From a virus (taxonomy: Duplodnaviria; Caudoviricetes): a DNA stretch of 64,000 nucleotides. Both the position numbers and the translations under genes were made by a program. The DNA lies in IMG/VR virus record IMGVR_UViG_3300021255_001866, positions 25,314 through 89,313 of that record; one strand, written 5' to 3'. Under the pieces are notes generated by a model. That model ran no database searches and was not told the DNA's origin. It saw nothing but the letters and a program-made list of their open reading frames with translations. Shown here piece by piece: positions 13,983 to 58,500 of this stretch. Position 1 is the first letter of the stretch, and every line of letters starts with the position of its first letter.

Positions 13983-15728
13983 ATGGCACAAGCAAAAGTG
14001 AATATACCATATCCTCACACAAGCATTGAAAACCCTATTGCTTATAACTGGGGTAATGACGATAGTTGGGCTGGGCAGTTTTGGGAAAGAAGGCGGCAAG
14101 CCGTTATTTCAAAACTAACTGGGTCAAGAGTTAATTATGATGATAATCTTTAGGATTTACGCATATTGGGCGAACGCATGAAGGCATTGGGTGAAGCCGA
14201 AAGATAGAAAGAATTGAATTTATTACGCCGCGCGCTCCCAGATTTTGATTTTTCAAATATAGATGAGAATCAATTGATTCAAAAATTGAATGAAGTAATA
14301 CGTGGGAAGGAATAGTTTGAATTTGCTTTATAGAGAATTGAAGCGGCAATGAATCATGGTGGTACAATTGCAAAGACTACAAATGAACCATTCAAAGGTT
14401 TGGCGCCTTCTATGGCATCTGTTTTTCTTTCGTATTTAACTACAGAAATGGTAGCTGTCTTCAATTAGTTTGCATAGTAGTTAAATATTAATGATTCAGT
14501 TTCATAGTGGGATGTATATTTAGAATAGCATTTTAATGAAGCTGTAGATATTGCTATGCGAAAAATGTTAGAAGAATCACGTGTTGGTAAAGAAGTAGAT
14601 AAGATCTATGGAGATGCCGATCAATGGCGCGCAATTGGTGAAGCATATAGAATGTTAAAACCATTTCAAGATTAGTTTAAATCCATGTTAAGATCAAAAT
14701 TAAACTTAGATGAACTAAAAACTGCCTTTACTAATGGTGAAAATAGTGCTATATTAGCAAAAGCACAGCGTGGTAATAAACGAAGCGGTTTTAGCACATA
14801 TTTACGAAAAAATTTGAAATGGGATAAGCGTACTGCAAGTATTGGTGGTTCTGTTGCTGAGTATTTAAATACATTGATTGCTAATATGGTTCCAAAAGGC
14901 GGCACTATAACGGATAAGGCCACTGTTGTAGTTGAAGGTGAAAAAGTACGTACTGATACTGTAGGTGTATATCAATTTACAGTTGAGGGTGAATTTGATG
15001 CCGCTGAATTAGCAAATGATTTAAATAATGTACTTACAAGCGCGGGCGGCCTATCGGATGCCGCAGAAGGATTGCGAAATTTCTATAACAGAAATTTGAG
15101 AAATTTAAACGATACGTTTATAATATATACCAGTACGAAAAACTACTCTTTAGGTAGTGGTTTTAGTGGTTTTCATAATGGTAGTAATCTTCCTCTTAGA
15201 CGACTTCCAGAATATATTGATGCGGCCGGAATTAGTGCTGATGTAGGTCAAGATTTTGTTTATACTGCATATAATACACTTGAAAGTGCAGTGTTTGAAG
15301 ATGAACGTGAAGATATAAGGTAGAATATCGTCAATATTTTAACAAGCGCCGCCGCAAAGTTAATGTTTGATGATTGGCAAACAATCGGTGTTCCTAATGT
15401 AGGTGCGCAATCGATCCATGTATTTGATTTGGATGGTATTTCTATTCCAGCGAGCTTACTATTTATTAGACTTGGAACTGCTATGATGACGGCGGTTAAT
15501 GAAATGAAAACATGGGTATCTGTACGTGTTCACTTACCACATACTGTCTTGTATCACCCTGATGATTGGAAAACTTTTGGATCTACCAATGAAGACATTA
15601 AAAAGGGCATCTATCAAAAATGGGAAGAACAAGCAAAAATGGCGGAAAAGGAATCTGAATTTTCAGTGAAGTTTCTTTATAATTTTAAATCTTTGATGCG
15701 TTCTTTAATTAGCGGCGTTTCTATTTAA
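13983..15728 (+). CDS. Hypothetical 581-aa protein with 11 in-frame TAG
   Basis: AGGAGG RBS; one frame free of TAA/TGA from 13983 to 15728, joining track fragments 14685-15323 and 15363-15728. Confidence 0.8.
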
Positions 15729-15947: not shown

Positions 15948-16769
15948 ATGAAGTATATGGTTACAGGGGATTGTCATTCTGTTTTCACACGTTTTGCCAA
16001 TCTCCCCAAAGATGAAGAAATAGGTATGATAATTTTAGGAGATGCCGGTTTTAATTTCTACCTTAATAAAACTGATGCACGAAAGAAAAAAGAAGTTTCT
16101 GAAAACTATCCTAATATTACTTTTTATTGCGTACGCGGCAATCATGAAGCGCGGCCGCAAGATATTCCCAATATGAAACTCAAATATGATCCAGATGTGG
16201 ATGGAATGATCTATATGGAAGATGAATATCCCAATATTCGATACTTCAAAGATTATGGCATTTATACAATTAATGGATATGATTGTGCTGTAATTGGTGG
16301 CGCTTATTCTGTTGATAAATACTGGCGTCTTATGCGTGCTGGCATCACTTCTAAACTCGATAAAGACTATTATAACCCAAAAAAGACCGGATGGTTTTGG
16401 AATGAGCAGTTGACTGCGGAAGAGATGGATCGAGCAGCCGCATTGTTCAAAGGGCAGCACTTTAGTTTTGTCTTTTCGCATACTTGCCCTTTTGAGTGGG
16501 AGCCAAACGATCTTTTTCTTTCACAAGTAGATCAAACCACTGTTGATAAGTCTATGGAATTTTGGATGGATAAAATCAAAAATACTTTTGAAGGGGAAGT
16601 ATGGTTGTTCGCACACTTCCATGCTGATCGTATTGAGCGGCCGCACGTTGAAATGTATTATCATGATATGGAAGAACTCAATGAAATATATAATCGCTGG
16701 AAAAGATATGATGCTACCGGCGAACTTGAATGGCATTTGGTTAAAAGTCCGAATTTCTATATGACTTAA
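15948..16769 (+). CDS. Calcineurin-like metallophosphoesterase
   Basis: GDCH, GD, GNHE, SHTCP and AHFH motifs. Confidence 0.85.
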   Translation: MKYMVTGDCHSVFTRFANLPKDEEIGMIILGDAGFNFYLNKTDARKKKEVSENYPNITFYCVRGNHEARPQDIPNMKLKYDPDVDGMIYMEDEYPNIRYFKDYGIYTINGYDCAVIGGAYSVDKYWRLMRAGITSKLDKDYYNPKKTGWFWNEQLTAEEMDRAAALFKGQHFSFVFSHTCPFEWEPNDLFLSQVDQTTVDKSMEFWMDKIKNTFEGEVWLFAHFHADRIERPHVEMYYHDMEELNEIYNRWKRYDATGELEWHLVKSPNFYMT

Positions 16770-16772
16770 TTT

Positions 16773-16824
16773 TGACTTTTTAATAAATCTATAGTATAAT
16801 ATATATAGAAAATGAGAAAGGGAG
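16773..16824 (+). promoter_or_regulatory. Representative of a repeated sigmaA-like promoter/leader motif
   Basis: TTGA(T/C)T-N16/17-TATAAT-ATATATAGAAAAT(G/A)AGAAAGG; copies with -35 at about 16773, 18823, 20436, 21381, 24284, 26645, 27946, 29472, 34195, 37182 and 38379. Confidence 0.8.
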
Positions 16825-16831
16825 CTAAGAA

Positions 16832-17035
16832 ATGAGAGATCCTAAACGTATTCCACGTATCCTTCATGAAATTCAACGTGTATGGGAAGCCTTTCCCGAT
16901 TTGAGACTTGGACAACTTCTACTCGATGCTTATGATGATGCTCTTTATTATATCGAAGACGAAGATCTTGTACATGAACTACTAGAATTTGGATATAAAT
17001 ATGCAAAGGAGACCCTTGATGGCGAAAAGAGATAA
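16832..17035 (+). CDS. Small hypothetical phage protein
   Basis: MRDPKRI...VWEAFPDLRLGQLL; follows a promoter and RBS. Confidence 0.65.
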   Translation: MRDPKRIPRILHEIQRVWEAFPDLRLGQLLLDAYDDALYYIEDEDLVHELLEFGYKYAKETLDGEKR

Positions 17036-17167
17036 AAACCGTTCGTATAATGAATGGGAAGACGATTGGAAAGATCCCGAAGAAGAGCAGAAGAAGAAAC
17101 GTGAAAAAGAACGCCATGATCAGAGAACTCGTAAATATATGGCAGCAGATGATTGGGATGATATAGA

Positions 17168-17455
17168 ATGAAGAGAGTCGGACCGGAAGATATTATCCAG
17201 ATCAATGAAGCATATCTGGCATGTGGTACTTATAGTGGCGCGGCGGCAGCTACTGGATGGTCAGCTTCAACGGTAAAGAAATATGTTGATCCAAATTATA
17301 AAAGTCAACCAGTAATAACAGAAGATGAAGTTGATATTGAACTTCCACCGCTCTCTCAAGTTGCCGAATGGCTGCCGCCTTGGTATGATATTACTTGTTT
17401 GACGCCACAAGAAGAGAAAGAAATCAAACAGCTCTGGAAGGAGATGTTGGTGTGA
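17168..17455 (+). CDS. Small HTH-containing protein
   Basis: TYSGAAAATGWSASTVKKYV helix-turn-helix pattern. Confidence 0.55.
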   Translation: MKRVGPEDIIQINEAYLACGTYSGAAAATGWSASTVKKYVDPNYKSQPVITEDEVDIELPPLSQVAEWLPPWYDITCLTPQEEKEIKQLWKEMLV

Positions 17456-17766
17456 AAACCTATTTTGAATTTCGTGAGACAAGTAATAATGGTTGGACTA
17501 TTTGTCCAGTTCATAAAGAGTGGATTGGAGAAGATTTCTCAAAGCCGATAAAAGGTAGTTTTAATTTGTTAGCTTGTAGGGTGTCTGGACTTAGCTGGCC
17601 GCAATGGCTTCGGTATTGTCGTCAAAATGGTGCTTCTTTATATGGGAAGGGACATAAATATGTAGTGGCTGTATGGAGAGAACCGAATAAAGCTTTCCTT
17701 ACAAAACTTAACCAGCGGGCTAATGACCTTGCGAAGATTATTGATTTTAAGGAGTTGAATCTATAA
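17452..17766 (+). CDS. Hypothetical protein
   Basis: GTG start overlapping the upstream stop; intact ORF. Confidence 0.6.
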   Translation: MKTYFEFRETSNNGWTICPVHKEWIGEDFSKPIKGSFNLLACRVSGLSWPQWLRYCRQNGASLYGKGHKYVVAVWREPNKAFLTKLNQRANDLAKIIDFKELNL

Positions 17767-17900
17767 TGGATAAGCAGATCTTTAAGAAGACTGGCGAAGA
17801 ACTTCAAGAGTTTTTGAATTTTAGGAAGAGAGCCAATAGAGTACCAAGTAAGAAGGGTAAAGGTTCATATAATCGTAAAGATTTTAAGAAGGGAGAATAG
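17766..17900 (+). CDS. ArfA-like (alternative ribosome-rescue factor-like) 44-aa basic peptide
   Basis: MDKQIFKKTGEELQEFLNFRKRANRVPSKKGKGSYNRKDFKKGE carries the KKGKGSY.RK signature of ArfA; start overlaps the upstream stop (TAATG). Below the ORF-track size cutoff. Confidence 0.6.
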   Translation: MDKQIFKKTGEELQEFLNFRKRANRVPSKKGKGSYNRKDFKKGE

Positions 17901-17901
17901 G

Positions 17902-18114
17902 ATGGATGTAAAGCTATGCCCGAGATGTAATAAGTTGCCAAATATTAAGGTGAAGCATAAACTTAGATATATGTGTGTTATGAGTTGTGGTACACTTGGG
18001 TGCAAGTTGTATTATCCCATTATTACACTTGGTTTTAATAAAGAGAAGACAATGAAGAAGGCGGCCGAGCGATGGAATGCTGCGGTTGATAGATATGATG
18101 ATTTAGTTCTATAA
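17902..18114 (+). CDS. Zinc-ribbon protein (Lar-like)
   Basis: CPRC...CGTLGC and a C-terminal AAERWN. Confidence 0.55.
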   Translation: MDVKLCPRCNKLPNIKVKHKLRYMCVMSCGTLGCKLYYPIITLGFNKEKTMKKAAERWNAAVDRYDDLVL

Positions 18115-18129
18115 AGGAGAGTGATGTAA

Positions 18130-18617
18130 ATGTCCTTGAAGATTCTCTTCTTGGATGTTTAGCCCGAAAGGGCAAATAAGTAGATGGAGTATTAAATAAT
18201 AATCGAACTCGTACTGTAACATTCGATGGATGGCGTTTTGTTGATGATTATCTAGTTGAACGTTTAAAACAAATAATTGATGCCACGGGCGCCAAGATCG
18301 TATTAAGTTCTACATGGCGGGATGGTTGGAATAGAGAAGATGAGTCTAAGAATGAACCATTCTTTAACCAGCTCAGAGATAAACTCAAAGAGTATGGAAT
18401 GGAAATTTGGGATGCTCTTCCAATACCTGTGCGGTCAAGTCGTGGCATTGCTATTAATGAATGGTTTAAATTACATAAAGATTTAAGTATCGAATCTTTT
18501 GTAATTTTAGATGATTGGTATGACATGGGTATATATAGAGATTATCTTATTCAAACAAATGGCGGTATTGGCCTCACCGATGAAGATGTACAAGAAGCTA
18601 TTAATATGCTTAATTAA
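18130..18617 (+). CDS. HAD-family phosphatase (RNA-repair-like HAD) interrupted by a 23-nt coding gap at 18160-18182
   Basis: MSLKILFLDV (18130-18159) continues as DGVLN... from 18183 in another frame; later motifs IVLSSTWR and FVILDD are typical of this HAD family. Confidence 0.8.
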
Positions 18618-18630
18618 CAGGTGGTATAGA

Positions 18631-18813
18631 ATGACTATTATTGTTGAAGGCGATTTAAATCGTCTTAAAGAAATTAAACGATTTAATTGCCGTAAGTGTG
18701 GTTGTATTTTTGATGCTGAAAAAGAAGAGTATAAAGTATCAAGCCAGTATAACGAAGAATATTATTCGTGTATCTGTCCAACTTGCGGCAATAATGTGTA
18801 TATTCCGCACTAA
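18631..18813 (+). CDS. Small zinc-ribbon protein
   Basis: CRKCGC...CPTCG. Confidence 0.55.
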   Translation: MTIIVEGDLNRLKEIKRFNCRKCGCIFDAEKEEYKVSSQYNEEYYSCICPTCGNNVYIPH

Positions 18814-19162
18814 AGTAAAAATTTGATTTTTTCTGAATTTTAGTGTATACTATATATAGAAAATGAGAAAGGGGGATAAATAAAATGTACGATGATTTTG
18901 ATACCATGCAGCAAATTGAAGAAATTATTCCCGATGAATATGATGATTGGTGTCGTTGGGTATATGGTGGTGCTTATCGAGAAGAAGAAGATTAAATGAA
19001 AGAATTTTTATTTAAAGTTTCAACTTATCATTATGTTGCTGCTGAAAATCTTGATGAAGCATATGAGAAATTAGAAACAGAAATTATAAACGAATATGAT
19101 CATGTTGTAGATGTTGAAACACTTGATGAATATGAACTATAAGATTTAAAATAAGACATATA

Positions 19163-19231
19163 TTGGTTTGGTGTAGTGGAGATGCACGGCCTTCGCAAAG
19201 GGCAGGGATTAGTTCGATTCTAATAACTGAT
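19163..19231 (+). tRNA. Degenerate tRNA-Cys(GCA)-like gene
   Basis: T-arm ATTAG-TTCGATT-CTAAT and loop TC-GCA-AA; weak acceptor stem, no CCA. Confidence 0.45.
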
Positions 19232-19239
19232 AAAAATCC

Positions 19240-19880
19240 TGAGTCACAAGGAAGTAAAAGATATGTAGACGGTCGCTAGTGTGTAGAATTCTAGATGCGG
19301 TGTCACAAGCATAAATACCACACAACGAATTGATGGTTGTTTTAAGTAGTTTTTCTTCCTCGATATGAAAAAGGTCAAAGTTTAAGCGGCCAGCAACTGT
19401 CGCTATAAAAATAAGTTAATAAGCCAAAGATGAAGTAAGATGTTGGTTCGAATCCAATTCTGCCGAAAAGTGGCAGGTAGTTTAATTGGTAAAACGGCGA
19501 AGAATCTCAATTGGTGTCTCACACAATCCTTGTGGCGAGACAAGTGTGATAAGTCCAGTTACGGCGGTAGAGAAAGATACGCCACATCTATGCTCTACTT
19601 AAAAGGACGTGTAGGGTACCTCCACGTTGGTGCGTCTGGACGGAATTAGGAGCGCAAACTAATAAACCGAGAACTAACACCCGAGATAGTAAAAGCATAA
19701 TATAGCGTAAAAGCTTATTCATTCCTCTTCAAGTATAGAAGGCGGATACATTATCCGATACAACAGTACCTGGACGTGCACATAGAATTTCGGCCATAAT
19801 CGAGATGGAGGGAGCCGTGGAAGCGAATGAAGCTATCGAATTGATGTACTGGGGTGACGGGCAGTATAATCACACCGTCA
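19240..19880 (+). ncRNA. Candidate large structured ncRNA containing a circularly permuted tRNA-like module (19438-19500)
   Basis: No credible ORF; many hairpins; a T-arm, then a loop-closed acceptor stem, then a D-arm. Confidence 0.5.
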
Positions 19881-19884
19881 ATAT

Positions 19885-19961
19885 GCTCGGTTCGAATAAT
19901 AGGTCTAGTTCACGAGGCCTTCAATCTCGTAATAGAAGTTCGAGTCTCCTACCGAGTACCA
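19885..19961 (+). tRNA. tRNA-Glu(TTC), atypical C33
   Basis: Full cloverleaf GCTCGGT/ACCGAGT-A-CCA; loop CC-TTC-AA. Confidence 0.7.
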
Positions 19962-19989
19962 TAAAATGGAAATATAAGGAAATAGATAT

Positions 19990-20065
19990 GGCGGGTGGGA
20001 GGTTAGTATTTCAACCAGCCTCATAAGCTGGGTAAACCGACTGCAATTGTCGAGACCCGCAACCA
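19990..20065 (+). tRNA. tRNA-Met or Ile2 (CAT)
   Basis: CCAGC-CT-CAT-AA-GCTGG; G1.A72 mismatch; non-canonical T-loop TGCAATT; encoded CCA. Confidence 0.8.
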
Positions 20066-20203
20066 GTTACCATTTATTTCAACTCCTTTCTTTGATAAGA
20101 CTCACCTACGGGGAACCATCTCACTATTACTGACCAAAAGGTAATGGCGGCGGAGATGGCTGTGAGAAAATACGCTACCCTTTTTATTTAATTGGTAATT
20201 TAA

Positions 20204-20255
20204 AAGGCACATGCAGCAATTTTAGTGGGTAATCGCAAACCTTTTCGTGTCTTGT
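20204..20255 (+). ncRNA. CAGCAA-handle RNA copy A
   Basis: AAGGCAC-ATG-CAGCAA...GTGTCTT-GT terminal stem. Confidence 0.6.
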
Positions 20256-20672
20256 TTTTCTCTATATTCAAACGATGGCTTCTGAATTCCGAGGTCCACC
20301 ACTGCGTATCGAACGGTCAAAAAGCGCGGGAACTCCAGGGAAAGAACTCTGCGGATACGGGTTGTGCCGTGCAAGTTACCTCCTCAAGAGAAGGAAGACT
20401 ATTTTCCTTAGTAGTCTTCCTTCTTTCTTTTTATTTTGACTTTTTAGAAAATTTTTGGTATAATATATATAGAAAATAAGAAAGGGATAAATAAAATGAA
20501 GGTTTATTTGCTCATTCAAGACCAAGCTCTATGCGTACAAGGGTATGAAGTAGGCATAGAAAGCTATGTTTGCGGGGTATACTCCACGCGTCAGAAAGCA
20601 GCTAAGGCAATGTACGAAAAAGACGATGACCCTTATGTGGATTATCACATTATTGAGAAAGAGGTCGTATAA

Positions 20673-40083: not shown

Positions 40084-40159
40084 ACCCCCATAGTATAATG
40101 GTTAGTACAGGAGGCTCTAACCCTCTAGGTCTTGGTTCAATTCCGAAGTGGGGGCGCCA
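40084..40159 (+). tRNA. Amber-suppressor tRNA (anticodon CTA), probably Gln-inserting
   Basis: GGAGG-CT-CTA-AC-CCTCT (anticodon 40117-40119); D-stem GTAT/GTAC; 1.72 mismatch; G73; encoded CCA. Confidence 0.92.
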
Positions 40160-40184
40160 AATATTTAGACAGGAGTTGATTATA

Positions 40185-40829
40185 TTGGCATACGTCTATA
40201 AAATTATAAATGATATAAATGATAAAGTATATATAGGGTTAACTTATTATAGTATTTAGTCTCGTTGGCAAATACATTTAAAAGATAGAAAGAGATTTGA
40301 ATGTAAGGATAGGCCATTATATCGAGCTATGAATAAATATGGTATAGATCATTTTTTAATTTAGGAAATTGAAGAATGTTCAGATGAAGTAGTAAATGAA
40401 CGAGAAAAATATTGGATACAATTTTATAATAGTTATTATGATGGATATAATGCTACATTTGGTGGAGAAGGACGGAGAGAATATGACGCTTTAATTTTTG
40501 TTGAAGATTATTAGATTGGTTTAAATGAAACAGAAATTGCAAGTAAGTATAAGTGTGATATGACTACTGTAAGGAGAGCCCTTAATCTTTATAATATTTA
40601 TCCAGATAAGGAATAGCGAAAACGTGTGAAAGAATTGTATGGTAAAAAATGTTGTGGTATTAAAGATGGTATAAGTATTGAGTTTTTAACCATGATGGAT
40701 GCAGCACGTTTTATTAAAGATAATAATTTATCGTGTGATACTCTTGCGGGGATTCAAGCGCATATTGGGCATGTGTGTAATGGTAAAAGAAAAACTGCCT
40801 ATGGTTATAAATGGCAATATATAAATTAA
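40185..40829 (+). CDS. GIY-YIG homing endonuclease with NUMOD-like C-terminus, 4 in-frame TAG
   Basis: TTG start after AGGAG; AYVYKI.N.IN.KVYIG...GYNATFGGEG...CNGKRKTAYGYKW. Confidence 0.85.
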
Positions 40830-55578: not shown

Positions 55579-58500
55579 ATTGCTGAATCCAGATTCGCTA
55601 TAGTTCAGTACCCAAGAAAGACTTTATCATGATGGTATTGAATTAGAAAAAGGAGTTGTAATTACTCCTTATTTCTTAGAGAAGAATTAGGATTTTCTTT
55701 AGGAGTGCTTTTAGATATTTAGCGTTTATCCAGATGTATTTTTGGATTTAATCACTCCTTAGAATTCTAATTTTACTCTATTTCCTTATCAACGTATATT
55801 TCTGCGCGCGTGCATGAGATATACTTCTATATATATTACCGCGGCCCGTGCAACTTCAAAGACTTTTTTGTCAATACTGGCAAAGTATTTATAGTGTGTG
55901 TTTTTACCAAACCATGTTGGATCTATTGTTGCTCCTAATAAGGCGCAGGCCGCAAAAATTAGTAAGTAGAAAATTCAAGAGATATGGCGTATTTGGCCGC
56001 TCTTGAAGAATGAGTTAGAGCCTGGTATGAGCGATGGAGTCCACGCAAATTTCGGAAAAGACTATGTTGAATTGTTCTTTAAAAACGGCGCGCGGCTTAC
56101 AGTTGTCGGCGCGCTGGATTCTGATCGTGGACTTCGTACTCATGCCACTCTTATTGACGAAGCACGTGACCAAGATGGCGATGCAATTAACGAAATTGTT
56201 TTGCCGCAAATGAACGTATCTCGTCGTATGGATAATGGATTGATTAATCCTTATGAAAAGATTAATACTCAAGTAATATATGCTACTTCTGCTGGTACAA
56301 AAGCTTCCTTCGCTTAATCAATAGAGACTCATAGGCGAAGTAAAACCCGGTGAACCCAAAATGGGGTGTGGTAATTTATTACTGCTAATAGTGAAGCTTA
56401 ATTGTAACGCTATGCCAAGCCACTTATATGTGGAAGGTTCAGAGACTATCGAAAACACTATTATAATAGGAAGTGAGTAGAGTAGGTATGAGTGAGAAAC
56501 TTATATCGAAGCGCCGGGATTCAATTTATTAAAGTATAAATGCTAATTTCTACTTATTTGCGTAAGGCAAAATAATAGAAAATTGGAGGTTAGCATGGAA
56601 CTTTGGAAAGATATAATAAATGCAAGTAATTATGAAGTATCTAATTATGGTTAGATTCGTAACAAAACAACTAAATATATATTAAAAGGTAGAATATGTA
56701 AAACTGGCTACTATTAGGTTTCTATAAAACTTGATAGTACTGGGAAATTTACTAATTAGTATATACATAGACTTGTTGCTATTGCTTGGATACCAAATGA
56801 AGATAACAAACCAAGCGTAAACCATAAAGATGGTGATAAAAGTAATAATTGTGTTGATAATTTAGAATGGATGACATATACTGAATAGTAGGCACATCGT
56901 ACAGAACAATTAGGTAAGAAAAATATTGGTTCTCCAAAGAAGGTTGGGCAATATAATAAAGACGGTACATTAATTCATATTTTTAGTTCTGTTGAAGAAG
57001 CGGCTGCCAGTTTTGGTAAAAGTCGAGTTAATATTGATAATGCCATTCATCATAAGAAAAATCAACAATCTGCATATGGTTATATTTGGAAATATATTGA
57101 ATAAGAAATAGTCCAAGAATAAAAGTATGAGGCTTTGATAGATACTTTTGAAAAAGCAATAATTGATCCAAAATCTAGTTTCTGTATAGGACTTGATTAT
57201 CGCATCCCCGCCATGCACGGACTTATTGACCCAACGTATGTTCGTAATCTCAAACTCTCACCTTCTTATAATGAAACTACGTTCGCGGCTGAATATCTCG
57301 GTATGTGGTTGGGTGGTAGTGATGAATCTTGGTTTGATTATTCTAAACTTACAAAGTATCGAAAAATTAAAAATCCAGAGTGGACACAAAAGTTTAGAGC
57401 AGATAAAAACGTTTTCTACTTAATTTCAGTCGATGTAGGTAGACTTCACGACCAAACCGTAGCATGTATATGGCGCGTTAATATTCGTGATAATAAATAC
57501 TATGGAACGCTTGTAAATTTATTTGTCCTTGGACGCCAAGCTGAGACTAAAACCTTTGTACAATAGGCTATTGATTTAAAAAAGTTGATTGAAATATATC
57601 AACCACGCGAAGTCGTAATTGATTGCAATGGCTTGGGTGGATTTAACGCTCAAGTAAAATCCCTTTAATTGCTGGAAAACCCTAACGTATAGACGAGGGC
57701 AATCAGCAGCGAAGACTTAAGAAAAAGACACTTTTATTGGAGGTGTATATATGGAAAAGAAACTAATTACTATTTGTAAGTATCCATTACGTTATAATTA
57801 CTATGTTACAGATGATGGGTAGGTTTGGAGTCAACGAACCAATAAGTTTTTAAAGCAACATAAAGATAAAGATGGTTATATGAAAGTTAGATTATGTTGT
57901 TCAGACTTAGAGCCAGGTAAAACCCATACGTTTTCTGTTCATAGATTAATAATGGAAAATTTTAAACCGATTACAAATATGAATAACTTACAAGTTAATC
58001 ATATTGATGGAGATAAAACAAATAATTGTTTACATAATCTCGAGTGGGTGACTTGTGAAGAAAATATTCATCATGCTATTGAAAATGGATTACGAGCAAG
58101 AGTAAATGGCGCTGCAAAATTAACACCGGAGCAAGTAAAAGAAATTTATATTCGTGGAAATAATGGCGAACGAAATGTAGATTTATCTGAAGAATATGGT
58201 GTACATCCAGACATAATTGGTAAAATTAAAAATGGTAAAATGTGGCGTGAAGTTACTTCTAATCTTAAGTAACGTTCAACGACTAGTCGAAAGACGTAGA
58301 TTCAAGCGAATCGAAATGGGGGATATCGAAAGATAAAGATATAGTCTTATCTATATGGAAACATATAGCAGTTCATAAGAGAACGCATACGAACTAGCGA
58401 CTCGTATGGAAAATAATGGTTGGCTTGGCAGACGAAATGATTCGTACTTAGTTAGATGAAAATGGTAACGAAATCTCGGCCTATGGATTTTTTAATAATG

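Follow-up and report, generated by a model that had tools for sequence, protein, structure and literature searches.

We describe a gene for a HAD_SAK_2 phosphatase in a 64,000-nucleotide (nt) stretch of viral DNA, hereafter the window, whose conserved DxDGV motif is interrupted by a 23-nt coding gap (18160-18182). The window makes up the final 64 kb of the IMG/VR virus record IMGVR_UViG_3300021255_001866 (89 kb), which comes from ruminant gut samples, and all coordinates given without a locus name are positions on its plus strand. Comparison with related loci lends strong support to a reading that we consider probable, namely that the gap belongs to a mobile endonuclease cassette, that it disrupts the target of the endonuclease, and that ribosomes skip it by hopping. 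The initial annotation of this region had proposed a translational bypass element of the type found in T4 gene 60. The hopping part of that proposal has since gained comparative support from six different gap forms, from a predicted hairpin at the take-off site and from evidence of constraint on the gene, and it is from these sequence comparisons that we infer the complete hop. The gap itself had been seen correctly, while its origin had been missed; relatives carry a GIY-YIG endonuclease cassette at this locus together with sister forms of the gap that are only 4-7 nt long.

A 23-nt gap interrupts the DxDGV motif of a phosphatase gene

The phosphatase gene of the window is laid out in two parts. 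Part 1 (18130-18159) starts with an ATG at 18130, is preceded by a Shine-Dalgarno sequence at 18114-18121, and consists of the ten codons MSLKILFLDV, which include the motif I nucleophile Asp. Its last codon is the putative take-off codon GTT (Val, 18157-18159), and a TAG stop (18160-18162) follows immediately as the first triplet of the gap. A GCCC-GAAA-GGGC tetraloop hairpin (18162-18173), which begins within the stop codon at its G, is a candidate A-site hairpin, and it contains a Shine-Dalgarno-like GAAAGG (18166-18171) located 8 nt 5' of the landing codon, for which the analogy with T4 suggests a role. The 3' portion of the gap, AAATAA (18174-18179), is A/U-rich and contains a TAA (18177-18179) in the frame in which translation would resume. 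The last triplet of the gap is the putative landing codon GTA (Val, 18180-18182), and part 2 (18183-18617) then runs for 144 codons (18183-18614) to a stop at 18615-18617. Each of these features, from the GTT through the TAG, the hairpin and the TAA to the GTA, lies where it had been annotated initially.

Part 2 matches the Pfam family HAD_SAK_2 (PF18143) over profile positions 7-139 (E value 1e-21, 78 bits with a cut-off of 27.5) and also matches PHROG 1818. An intact relative covers the HAD_SAK_2 profile from position 1, with ILFLDV filling positions 1-6, so part 1 contributes precisely the strand and the nucleophile Asp that part 2 lacks, and the two parts jointly span profile positions 1-139. 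The DxD is present only when the gap is skipped, and the SSTWR and (I/L)DD sequences are kept in every gapped allele. The bounds of the gap are exact, since four IMG/VR relatives with proteins 86-89% identical to that of the window read GAT GTT / GAY GGT with nothing in between. These relatives, which lack precisely 18160-18182, bear out the earlier claim that the motif is restored only by skipping these positions.

The gap is real DNA. The same 23 nt are present in separate assemblies, being identical in the relative L011 and differing by one A-to-G substitution in L012. Contigs from a sheep-gut run and a bovine-gut run of other studies also cross the gap without an insertion or deletion, with no variable position listed between 18107 and 18214. 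The runs were compared as assembled contigs, which say nothing about expression. One gut sample (run X3) holds a gapped and an intact allele together, with a loose end ...ATGAAGATACTTTTTCTTGATGTT that joins at 18183; thus, gapped and intact forms circulate together.

The 23-mer occurs once in the window, where the chance expectation is 0, and the 12-mer of the hairpin occurs once in the 89-kb record. Additionally, the 21-nt core of the gap has no match elsewhere in IMG/VR. Since both the gap core and the hairpin 12-mer are unique, the gap is not a dispersed mini-element of the kind represented by the byps of yeast mitochondria. A megablast search of 17000-19200 against deposited phage genomes returned no match.

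Six gap forms share a stop codon and a matched terminal triplet

Sister forms of the gap were traced through short open reading frames (ORFs) that had been called as 72-126-residue "HAD" proteins, through searches with the neighbouring endonuclease, and through a survey of 80 IMG/VR HAD loci. The 23-nt form (GTT-TAG...GTA, then GAT) is found in the window, L011 and L012, and its take-off and landing codons are synonymous Val codons, as are those of a 7-nt form in L168 (GTT-TAGC-GTC, then GAT). Asp codons occupy both sites in a 4-nt form in L169 (GAT-T-GAC, then GGA), where the codons are synonymous and the stop is TGA, in a second 7-nt form in L242 (GAT-TAGT-GAT, then GGT), and in a 5-nt form in L283 (GAT-TA-GAT, then GGG). 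The remaining 5-nt form (ATT-TAG-TY, then GAY, in full GAY ATT TAG TY GAY GG) is present in L010, L013, L027, L164-167, L185-189 and L195/196, and it pairs ATT with a near-cognate GTY. Among its carriers, L185-L189 and L195/L196 belong to a subfamily with 58% identity to the window protein.

In all six forms a stop codon (TAG or TGA) stands right behind the last in-frame sense codon, and the final triplet of the gap is synonymous with the preceding codon in five forms and near-cognate to it in one (ATT/GTY). A simple estimate indicates that a random insert would combine a first-position stop with a matching last triplet in a few cases in a thousand per form. The gap lengths of 23, 5, 7, 4, 7 and 5 nt leave remainders of 2, 2, 1, 1, 1 and 2 when divided by three, so no single frameshift serves all six forms, and exact skipping is the sole reading that restores DxDGV in 6/6 of them.

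Other ways of reading through the gaps were tried and rejected. A simple -1 shift in the window runs into the TAA at 18177-18179. In the ATT/GTY form a -1 shift yields FLDILVDGV and a +2 shift FLDIVDGV, and in L168 a +1 shift yields DVSVDGV; the DxD spacing is lost in each of these products. If TAG is read as sense, translation soon meets a stop; in the window this is the TAA at 18193-18195, the dead end that had been described from the start.

Gapped HAD genes get called as truncated proteins of 72-126 residues, and 4/7 of the "shorter" matches and about 20 of the 120 matches listed have the look of such entries. Exact-pattern scans for the take-off region in IMG/VR and in JGI metagenomes gave, among the matches listed, nearly all chance matches in unrelated genes, with L027 the only new locus. 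A second scan, based on the endonuclease, returned mostly unrelated GIY-YIG genes, and L283 alone was informative.

A homing endonuclease gene lies upstream of gapped genes in relatives

Directly upstream of the gapped HAD gene, several relatives carry a gene of 276-284 residues with GIY-YIG, NUMOD1 and I-HmuI-like NUMOD domains. This nuclease gene is found in five lineages (L166/L167, L168, L169, L242 and L283) as well as on the contig P0124, and the encoded nucleases are mutually 41-72% identical. All HAD genes that have this neighbour are gapped. Within the survey of 80 loci, the gap was present in 2/2 of those adjacent to the homing endonuclease gene versus 1/78 of the others (Fisher p = 9.5e-4). 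In L168, comparison with L206/L203 shows the nuclease gene as a clean insertion of roughly 0.9 kb, placed between the HAD gene and the gene upstream of it.

The window has no nuclease gene at its HAD locus. Its leader sequence TATAAAGGAGAGTGATG (18110-18126), which includes the Shine-Dalgarno sequence, matches the final codons and the stop of the L166 GIY-YIG gene letter for letter, and because of this identity the nuclease appears to have been lost from the window allele. Most likely, the window allele goes back to a cassette from which the nuclease was lost while a remnant of about 17 nt and the gap were kept. A related trace is seen in L164 (2735-2750) and L027 (895-912), where an upstream Lar-like zinc-finger gene ends in K-G-E-stop with the same bases as the end of the L166 nuclease gene; this ending suggests a fusion that arose when the nuclease was deleted. 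Five other GIY-YIG-like genes are present elsewhere in the record.

A predicted hairpin ends at the take-off codon

A stem-loop is predicted immediately 5' of the gap (18127-18161), with an outer stem of 8-9 bp and an inner stem of 5 bp, and it ends at the take-off codon. We folded the 40 nt that end at the take-off codon in 12 gapped alleles, which form six sequence-independent groups, and the corresponding region of 41 distinct intact HAD genes. Predicted energies ranged from -9.5 to -12.2 kcal/mol in 12/12 gapped alleles, whereas the intact genes had a median of -3.6 and a minimum of -10.0 (Mann-Whitney p = 1e-7). The 5' arm of this hairpin is made of extra N-terminal codons (SL, SM, GI, KSR or TNIKKR) that typical family members do not have, with the exception of L168 in which the arm comes from upstream sequence instead. 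The 3' arm is the sequence that codes for F-L-D. In an alignment of window-type and L185-type alleles, 96.6% of cells in the hairpin are paired.

In the window the 5' hairpin adjoins the tetraloop hairpin, and the whole 72-nt fold has a z score of -3.6. The take-off codon pairs within the 5' stem and lies outside the predicted GCCC-GAAA-GGGC hairpin. Among the short sister forms, L168 is the only one with such a hairpin.

Gapped alleles retain signs of purifying selection

The downstream ORF is full length in 14/14 distinct gapped alleles and none of them carries a second lesion. Pairwise ratios of non-synonymous to synonymous divergence (dN/dS) are 0.07-0.19 for gapped alleles and 0.09-0.16 for intact alleles. 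Sister pairs that share a gap have ratios of 0.09-0.13 (P<1e-4 versus neutrality). For example, the window and L011 differ by 9 synonymous and 3 non-synonymous changes, L166 and L167 by 17 and 7, and L185 and L195 by 44 and 22. Synonymous divergence among gapped alleles reaches a dS of 1.8, and the proportion of synonymous differences (pS) between L185 and L195 is 0.48. Part 1 still codes for K-(I/V)-x-F-L-D-(I/V), and subfamilies differ in it mostly by synonymous changes and conservative replacements.

Proposed mechanism of cassette insertion and gap skipping

On the reading that we favour, a free-standing GIY-YIG/NUMOD gene would insert just upstream of phage HAD_SAK_2 phosphatase genes, and the cassette would bring with it a short insertion into the DNA that codes for the FLD(V/I)DGV motif. 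This insertion probably destroys the nuclease's own target and thereby protects the cassette DNA, as judged from T4, where the insertion has been shown to protect the cassette DNA from its own nuclease MobA (10.1101/2022.08.31.505936). During translation of the window allele, peptidyl-tRNA-Val would come to rest on GUU (18157-18159) with a UAG in the A site that would be slow to decode and partly buried in the GCCC-GAAA-GGGC hairpin. The anticodon would unpair from GUU and the mRNA would slide forward, pulled by the 5' hairpin as it re-forms behind the ribosome at the mRNA exit, and perhaps guided by pairing of GAAAGG (18166-18171) with the anti-Shine-Dalgarno sequence. The tRNA would then re-pair on GUA (18180-18182) and decoding would restart at GAU (18183), which would yield a product reading ...ILFLDV-DGVLN... 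with the junction peptide ILFLDVDGVLNNNR. What is shown directly is the gap with its variants, its association with the endonuclease, the predicted hairpins and the intact ORF under constraint. It is by analogy and comparison that we infer the cassette origin, the hopping, the immunity of the target site and the role of each signal.

Several observations weigh against this reading. The nascent chain is 10 residues long at take-off, and short peptidyl-tRNAs are prone to drop-off; with take-off at codon 10, a nascent-peptide signal like that of T4 (14-30 residues) is ruled out. The hop also demands that one tRNA-Val serve both GUU and GUA. A single U34-modified tRNA-Val usually reads both of these codons. 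In the commonest 5-nt form, take-off from an Ile codon is combined with landing on GUY, which needs a first-position G-U pair. Regarding the 5' hairpin, the intact allele L197 bears it too, and a covariation test of the window-type and L185-type alleles found five pairs that vary on one side with no compensatory double change; this pattern is consistent with the structure and does not prove it. In a TAG-recoded phage, as this one is (see below), a suppressor tRNA would send ribosomes into the dead-end frame. Finally, unprogrammed stop-hops in Escherichia coli constructs are inefficient (PMC5009743; 10.1101/2022.08.31.505936).

Alternative explanations

The strongest competitor holds that the gap is an immunity or repair scar in a dead and dispensable phosphatase gene, whose ORF appears intact since the gapped alleles are young or are refreshed by recombination. 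The distribution of alleles speaks for this explanation and is at the same time a difficulty for hopping. Gapped alleles are scattered among intact ones on the gene tree, both occur in the sample of run X3, and a 5-nt insertion, ATTTA, is essentially all that separates the near-identical L195 and L197, so the gap has been gained, lost or transferred often. With turnover this frequent, part of the purifying selection may predate the gap, and the selection argument taken alone is not decisive. The differences between the window and L011 are also concentrated in the 3' portion of the HAD gene, which has the look of a recombination patch. A scar in a dead gene nevertheless leaves unexplained why 6/6 forms begin with a stop and end with a codon-matching triplet, and why a strong hairpin at the take-off codon sets the gapped genes apart from the intact ones. 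It also sits poorly with the finding of a second lesion in 0/14 distinct gapped alleles despite dS values of up to 1.8. We regard this explanation as unlikely.

Much less probable is removal of the gap at the RNA level, either as a mini-intron or by splicing or editing that acts in trans. A search of 16500-20500 with Rfam at a relaxed threshold gave no RNA family, introns included, at the gap or close to it, the 4-7-nt sister forms are too short for any known intron, and matching of codons is a signature of translation and not of splicing. We give equally little credence to the proposal that the ten-codon ORF is a leader peptide or a regulatory upstream ORF, followed by a truncated and non-catalytic HAD protein that lacks the nucleophile Asp and starts at a non-canonical codon. 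The 5' hairpin of window-type alleles takes up the start codon, an arrangement that could be regulatory, yet this codon lies outside the hairpin in other gap forms. Furthermore, the resume frame has no ATG, GTG or TTG before codon 73, a TAA lies immediately 5' of the GTA, and the mini-ORF always codes for exactly the family residues that part 2 is missing. An artefact of sequencing or assembly is already refuted by the recurrence of the 23 nt in L011, L012 and the contigs of two outside runs.

Genetic code and the proposed amber switch

The phage is TAG-recoded, as many long ORFs at 40-62 kb and an ORF at 13983-15728 need 4-11 in-frame TAG codons to be read as sense, and the window encodes an amber suppressor tRNA with anticodon CUA (40085-40155) that is a possible competitor of the hop. 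In-frame TAG codons are also carried by the nuclease genes of L166 (six), L168 and L242. The nuclease genes of L169 and L283 have no in-frame stops, and the gap stops of these two loci are TGA and TAG, respectively. Their phages probably use the standard code, and since they are gapped all the same, the cassette type would be independent of recoding. The suggestion in the initial annotation that an amber-sensing switch is what the gap is for does not agree with this occurrence of the same cassette type under a probably standard code. Competition between suppressor tRNA and hop is plausible in this phage as a side effect, and it is possibly exploited.

A bolder proposal, which we hold to be doubtful, is that the hop is gated by the phage's own change of code, with the gap acting both as an immunity mark and as a temporal switch. 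Early in infection UAG would be a slow stop, ribosomes would hop, and the RNA-repair phosphatase would be made. Late in infection the suppressor tRNA would build up, UAG would be read as sense, translation would end at the stop at 18193-18195, and the enzyme would be switched off. An endonuclease such as that of L166, with its six in-frame TAG codons, could then be made late only.

Some further observations concern TAG codons. The ORF at 13983-15728 has 581 codons with 11 in-frame TAG and no Pfam match, and is located about 2 kb upstream of the HAD gene in a region whose genes are otherwise free of TAG. Further GIY-YIG-like ORFs with in-frame TAG are present in the window at 40098-40829 (match at 40188-40649), 30-284 and 56934-57107; the best of them is 45% identical to the L166 nuclease and starts within or beside the gene of the amber suppressor tRNA. 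In the intact allele L197 (2140-2160), the Trp codon of ILDDW has changed from TGG to TAG at a position shared by all relatives. This TAG may have arisen as a nonsense mutation, or it may indicate which residue the suppressor inserts.

Relation to known recoding systems

Programmed bypassing is established for very few systems, namely T4 gene 60 with its homologues, all in topoisomerase genes, and the mitochondrial byps of one yeast lineage. The T4 mobA/gene 60 cassette combines a homing endonuclease and a protective gap with matched codons, a UAG, a take-off hairpin, a 5' stem-loop, a Shine-Dalgarno-like element and an A/U-rich 3' gap (10.1101/2022.08.31.505936; PMC5009743). Manning and Atkins reported bypass cassettes in topoisomerase genes only and called the cassette unique (10.1101/2022.08.31.505936), and in the T4 family some copies have lost the nuclease and kept the gap (10.1101/2022.08.31.505936).

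The locus described here resembles T4 gene 60 in many respects. Its gap lies within a conserved enzyme motif, a UAG follows the take-off codon, a predicted tetraloop hairpin overlaps the stop, and a predicted stem-loop lies 5' of take-off. Ahead of the landing codon there is a Shine-Dalgarno-like element with an A/U-rich stretch, an endonuclease gene is found directly upstream in relatives, and the gap outlives the nuclease in some copies. Take-off and landing codons match in both systems, although they are synonymous here (GUU/GUA) and identical in T4. There are also clear differences. The host gene encodes a HAD_SAK_2 phosphatase and not a topoisomerase, and it is not split in two. The nuclease is of the GIY-YIG/NUMOD type and not an HNH MobA. 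The gap measures 23 nt (4-7 nt in the sisters) compared with about 50 nt, take-off would occur at codon 10 with no long nascent-peptide signal, and bypassing in the present system is putative. Because the host gene and the nuclease family differ, the locus would be an independent analogue of the T4 mobA/gene 60 cassette and not a member of its family.

Similarities to other systems are more partial. In synthetic E. coli stop-hops, the peptidyl-tRNA leaves the codon before a slow stop and re-pairs a few bases further on, and the 4-7-nt forms look exactly like such events. However, the synthetic hops are unprogrammed and inefficient, whereas the sites described here are natural, conserved and equipped with a dedicated 5' hairpin; a 2016 review of recoding stated that no natural short stop-hops were known (PMC5009743). 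The byps of Magnusiomyces capitatus mitochondria (27-55 nt) are likewise short inserts of mobile origin in essential coding sequences that are skipped between matched codons. They exist as many dispersed copies resembling GC clusters, in contrast to the present gap, which is unique in the genome and in IMG/VR and is associated with a single target gene and a single endonuclease. In the +1 frameshift of prfB (RF2; CUU UGA C), a stop in the A site drives re-pairing of the P-site tRNA, and the GAU UGA C of L169 is similar to this site. Unlike in prfB, a +1 shift in L169 adds a residue (DIDDGV), and in the other forms it gives a wrong spacing or stops. The nuclease itself is like the Seg GIY-YIG endonucleases of T4-like phages in its combination of GIY-YIG, NUMOD1 and I-HmuI-like NUMOD domains, in its intergenic insertion and in its presence/absence polymorphism; no coding gap is known in a gene that neighbours a Seg element.

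If the favoured reading of a mobile cassette with a hopped gap is true, the locus would constitute an independent case of bypassing, located in another gene and linked to another family of nucleases, and it would offer a naturally occurring series of gaps of 4-23 nt. Such a series separates signals that are common to all forms (a stop, a matched triplet and a hairpin behind the ribosome) from those confined to the long gap (a candidate A-site hairpin, an internal Shine-Dalgarno-like element and an A/U-rich tract). The window copy, from which the nuclease was probably lost, has the most T4-like gap of the series. The system is compact enough for direct reporter tests.

Genes and a possible RNA neighbouring the phosphatase gene

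The gene directly upstream of the HAD gene in the window (17902-18114) encodes a 70-residue Lar-like restriction-alleviation zinc-ribbon protein (Pfam E value 1.1e-5, just under the cut-off), and one contig of run X1 swaps about 160 nt of this gene for unrelated sequence. Two genes upstream of the HAD gene, a 44-residue ORF (17766-17900) weakly matches the Pfam family of ArfA (alternative ribosome-rescue factor A; E value 5.8e-4, 19.7 bits with a cut-off of 25.5); in a TAG-recoded phage, a mimic of this factor next to a hop site could bear on stalled ribosomes. Downstream, a weak Rfam match to the Y RNA-like family YrlA (19420-19524; 30.5 bits with a gathering score of 69, E value 8.5e-4) lies in non-coding sequence flanked by tRNA-Cys and tRNA-Glu, in line with the RNA-repair setting of HAD_SAK_2.

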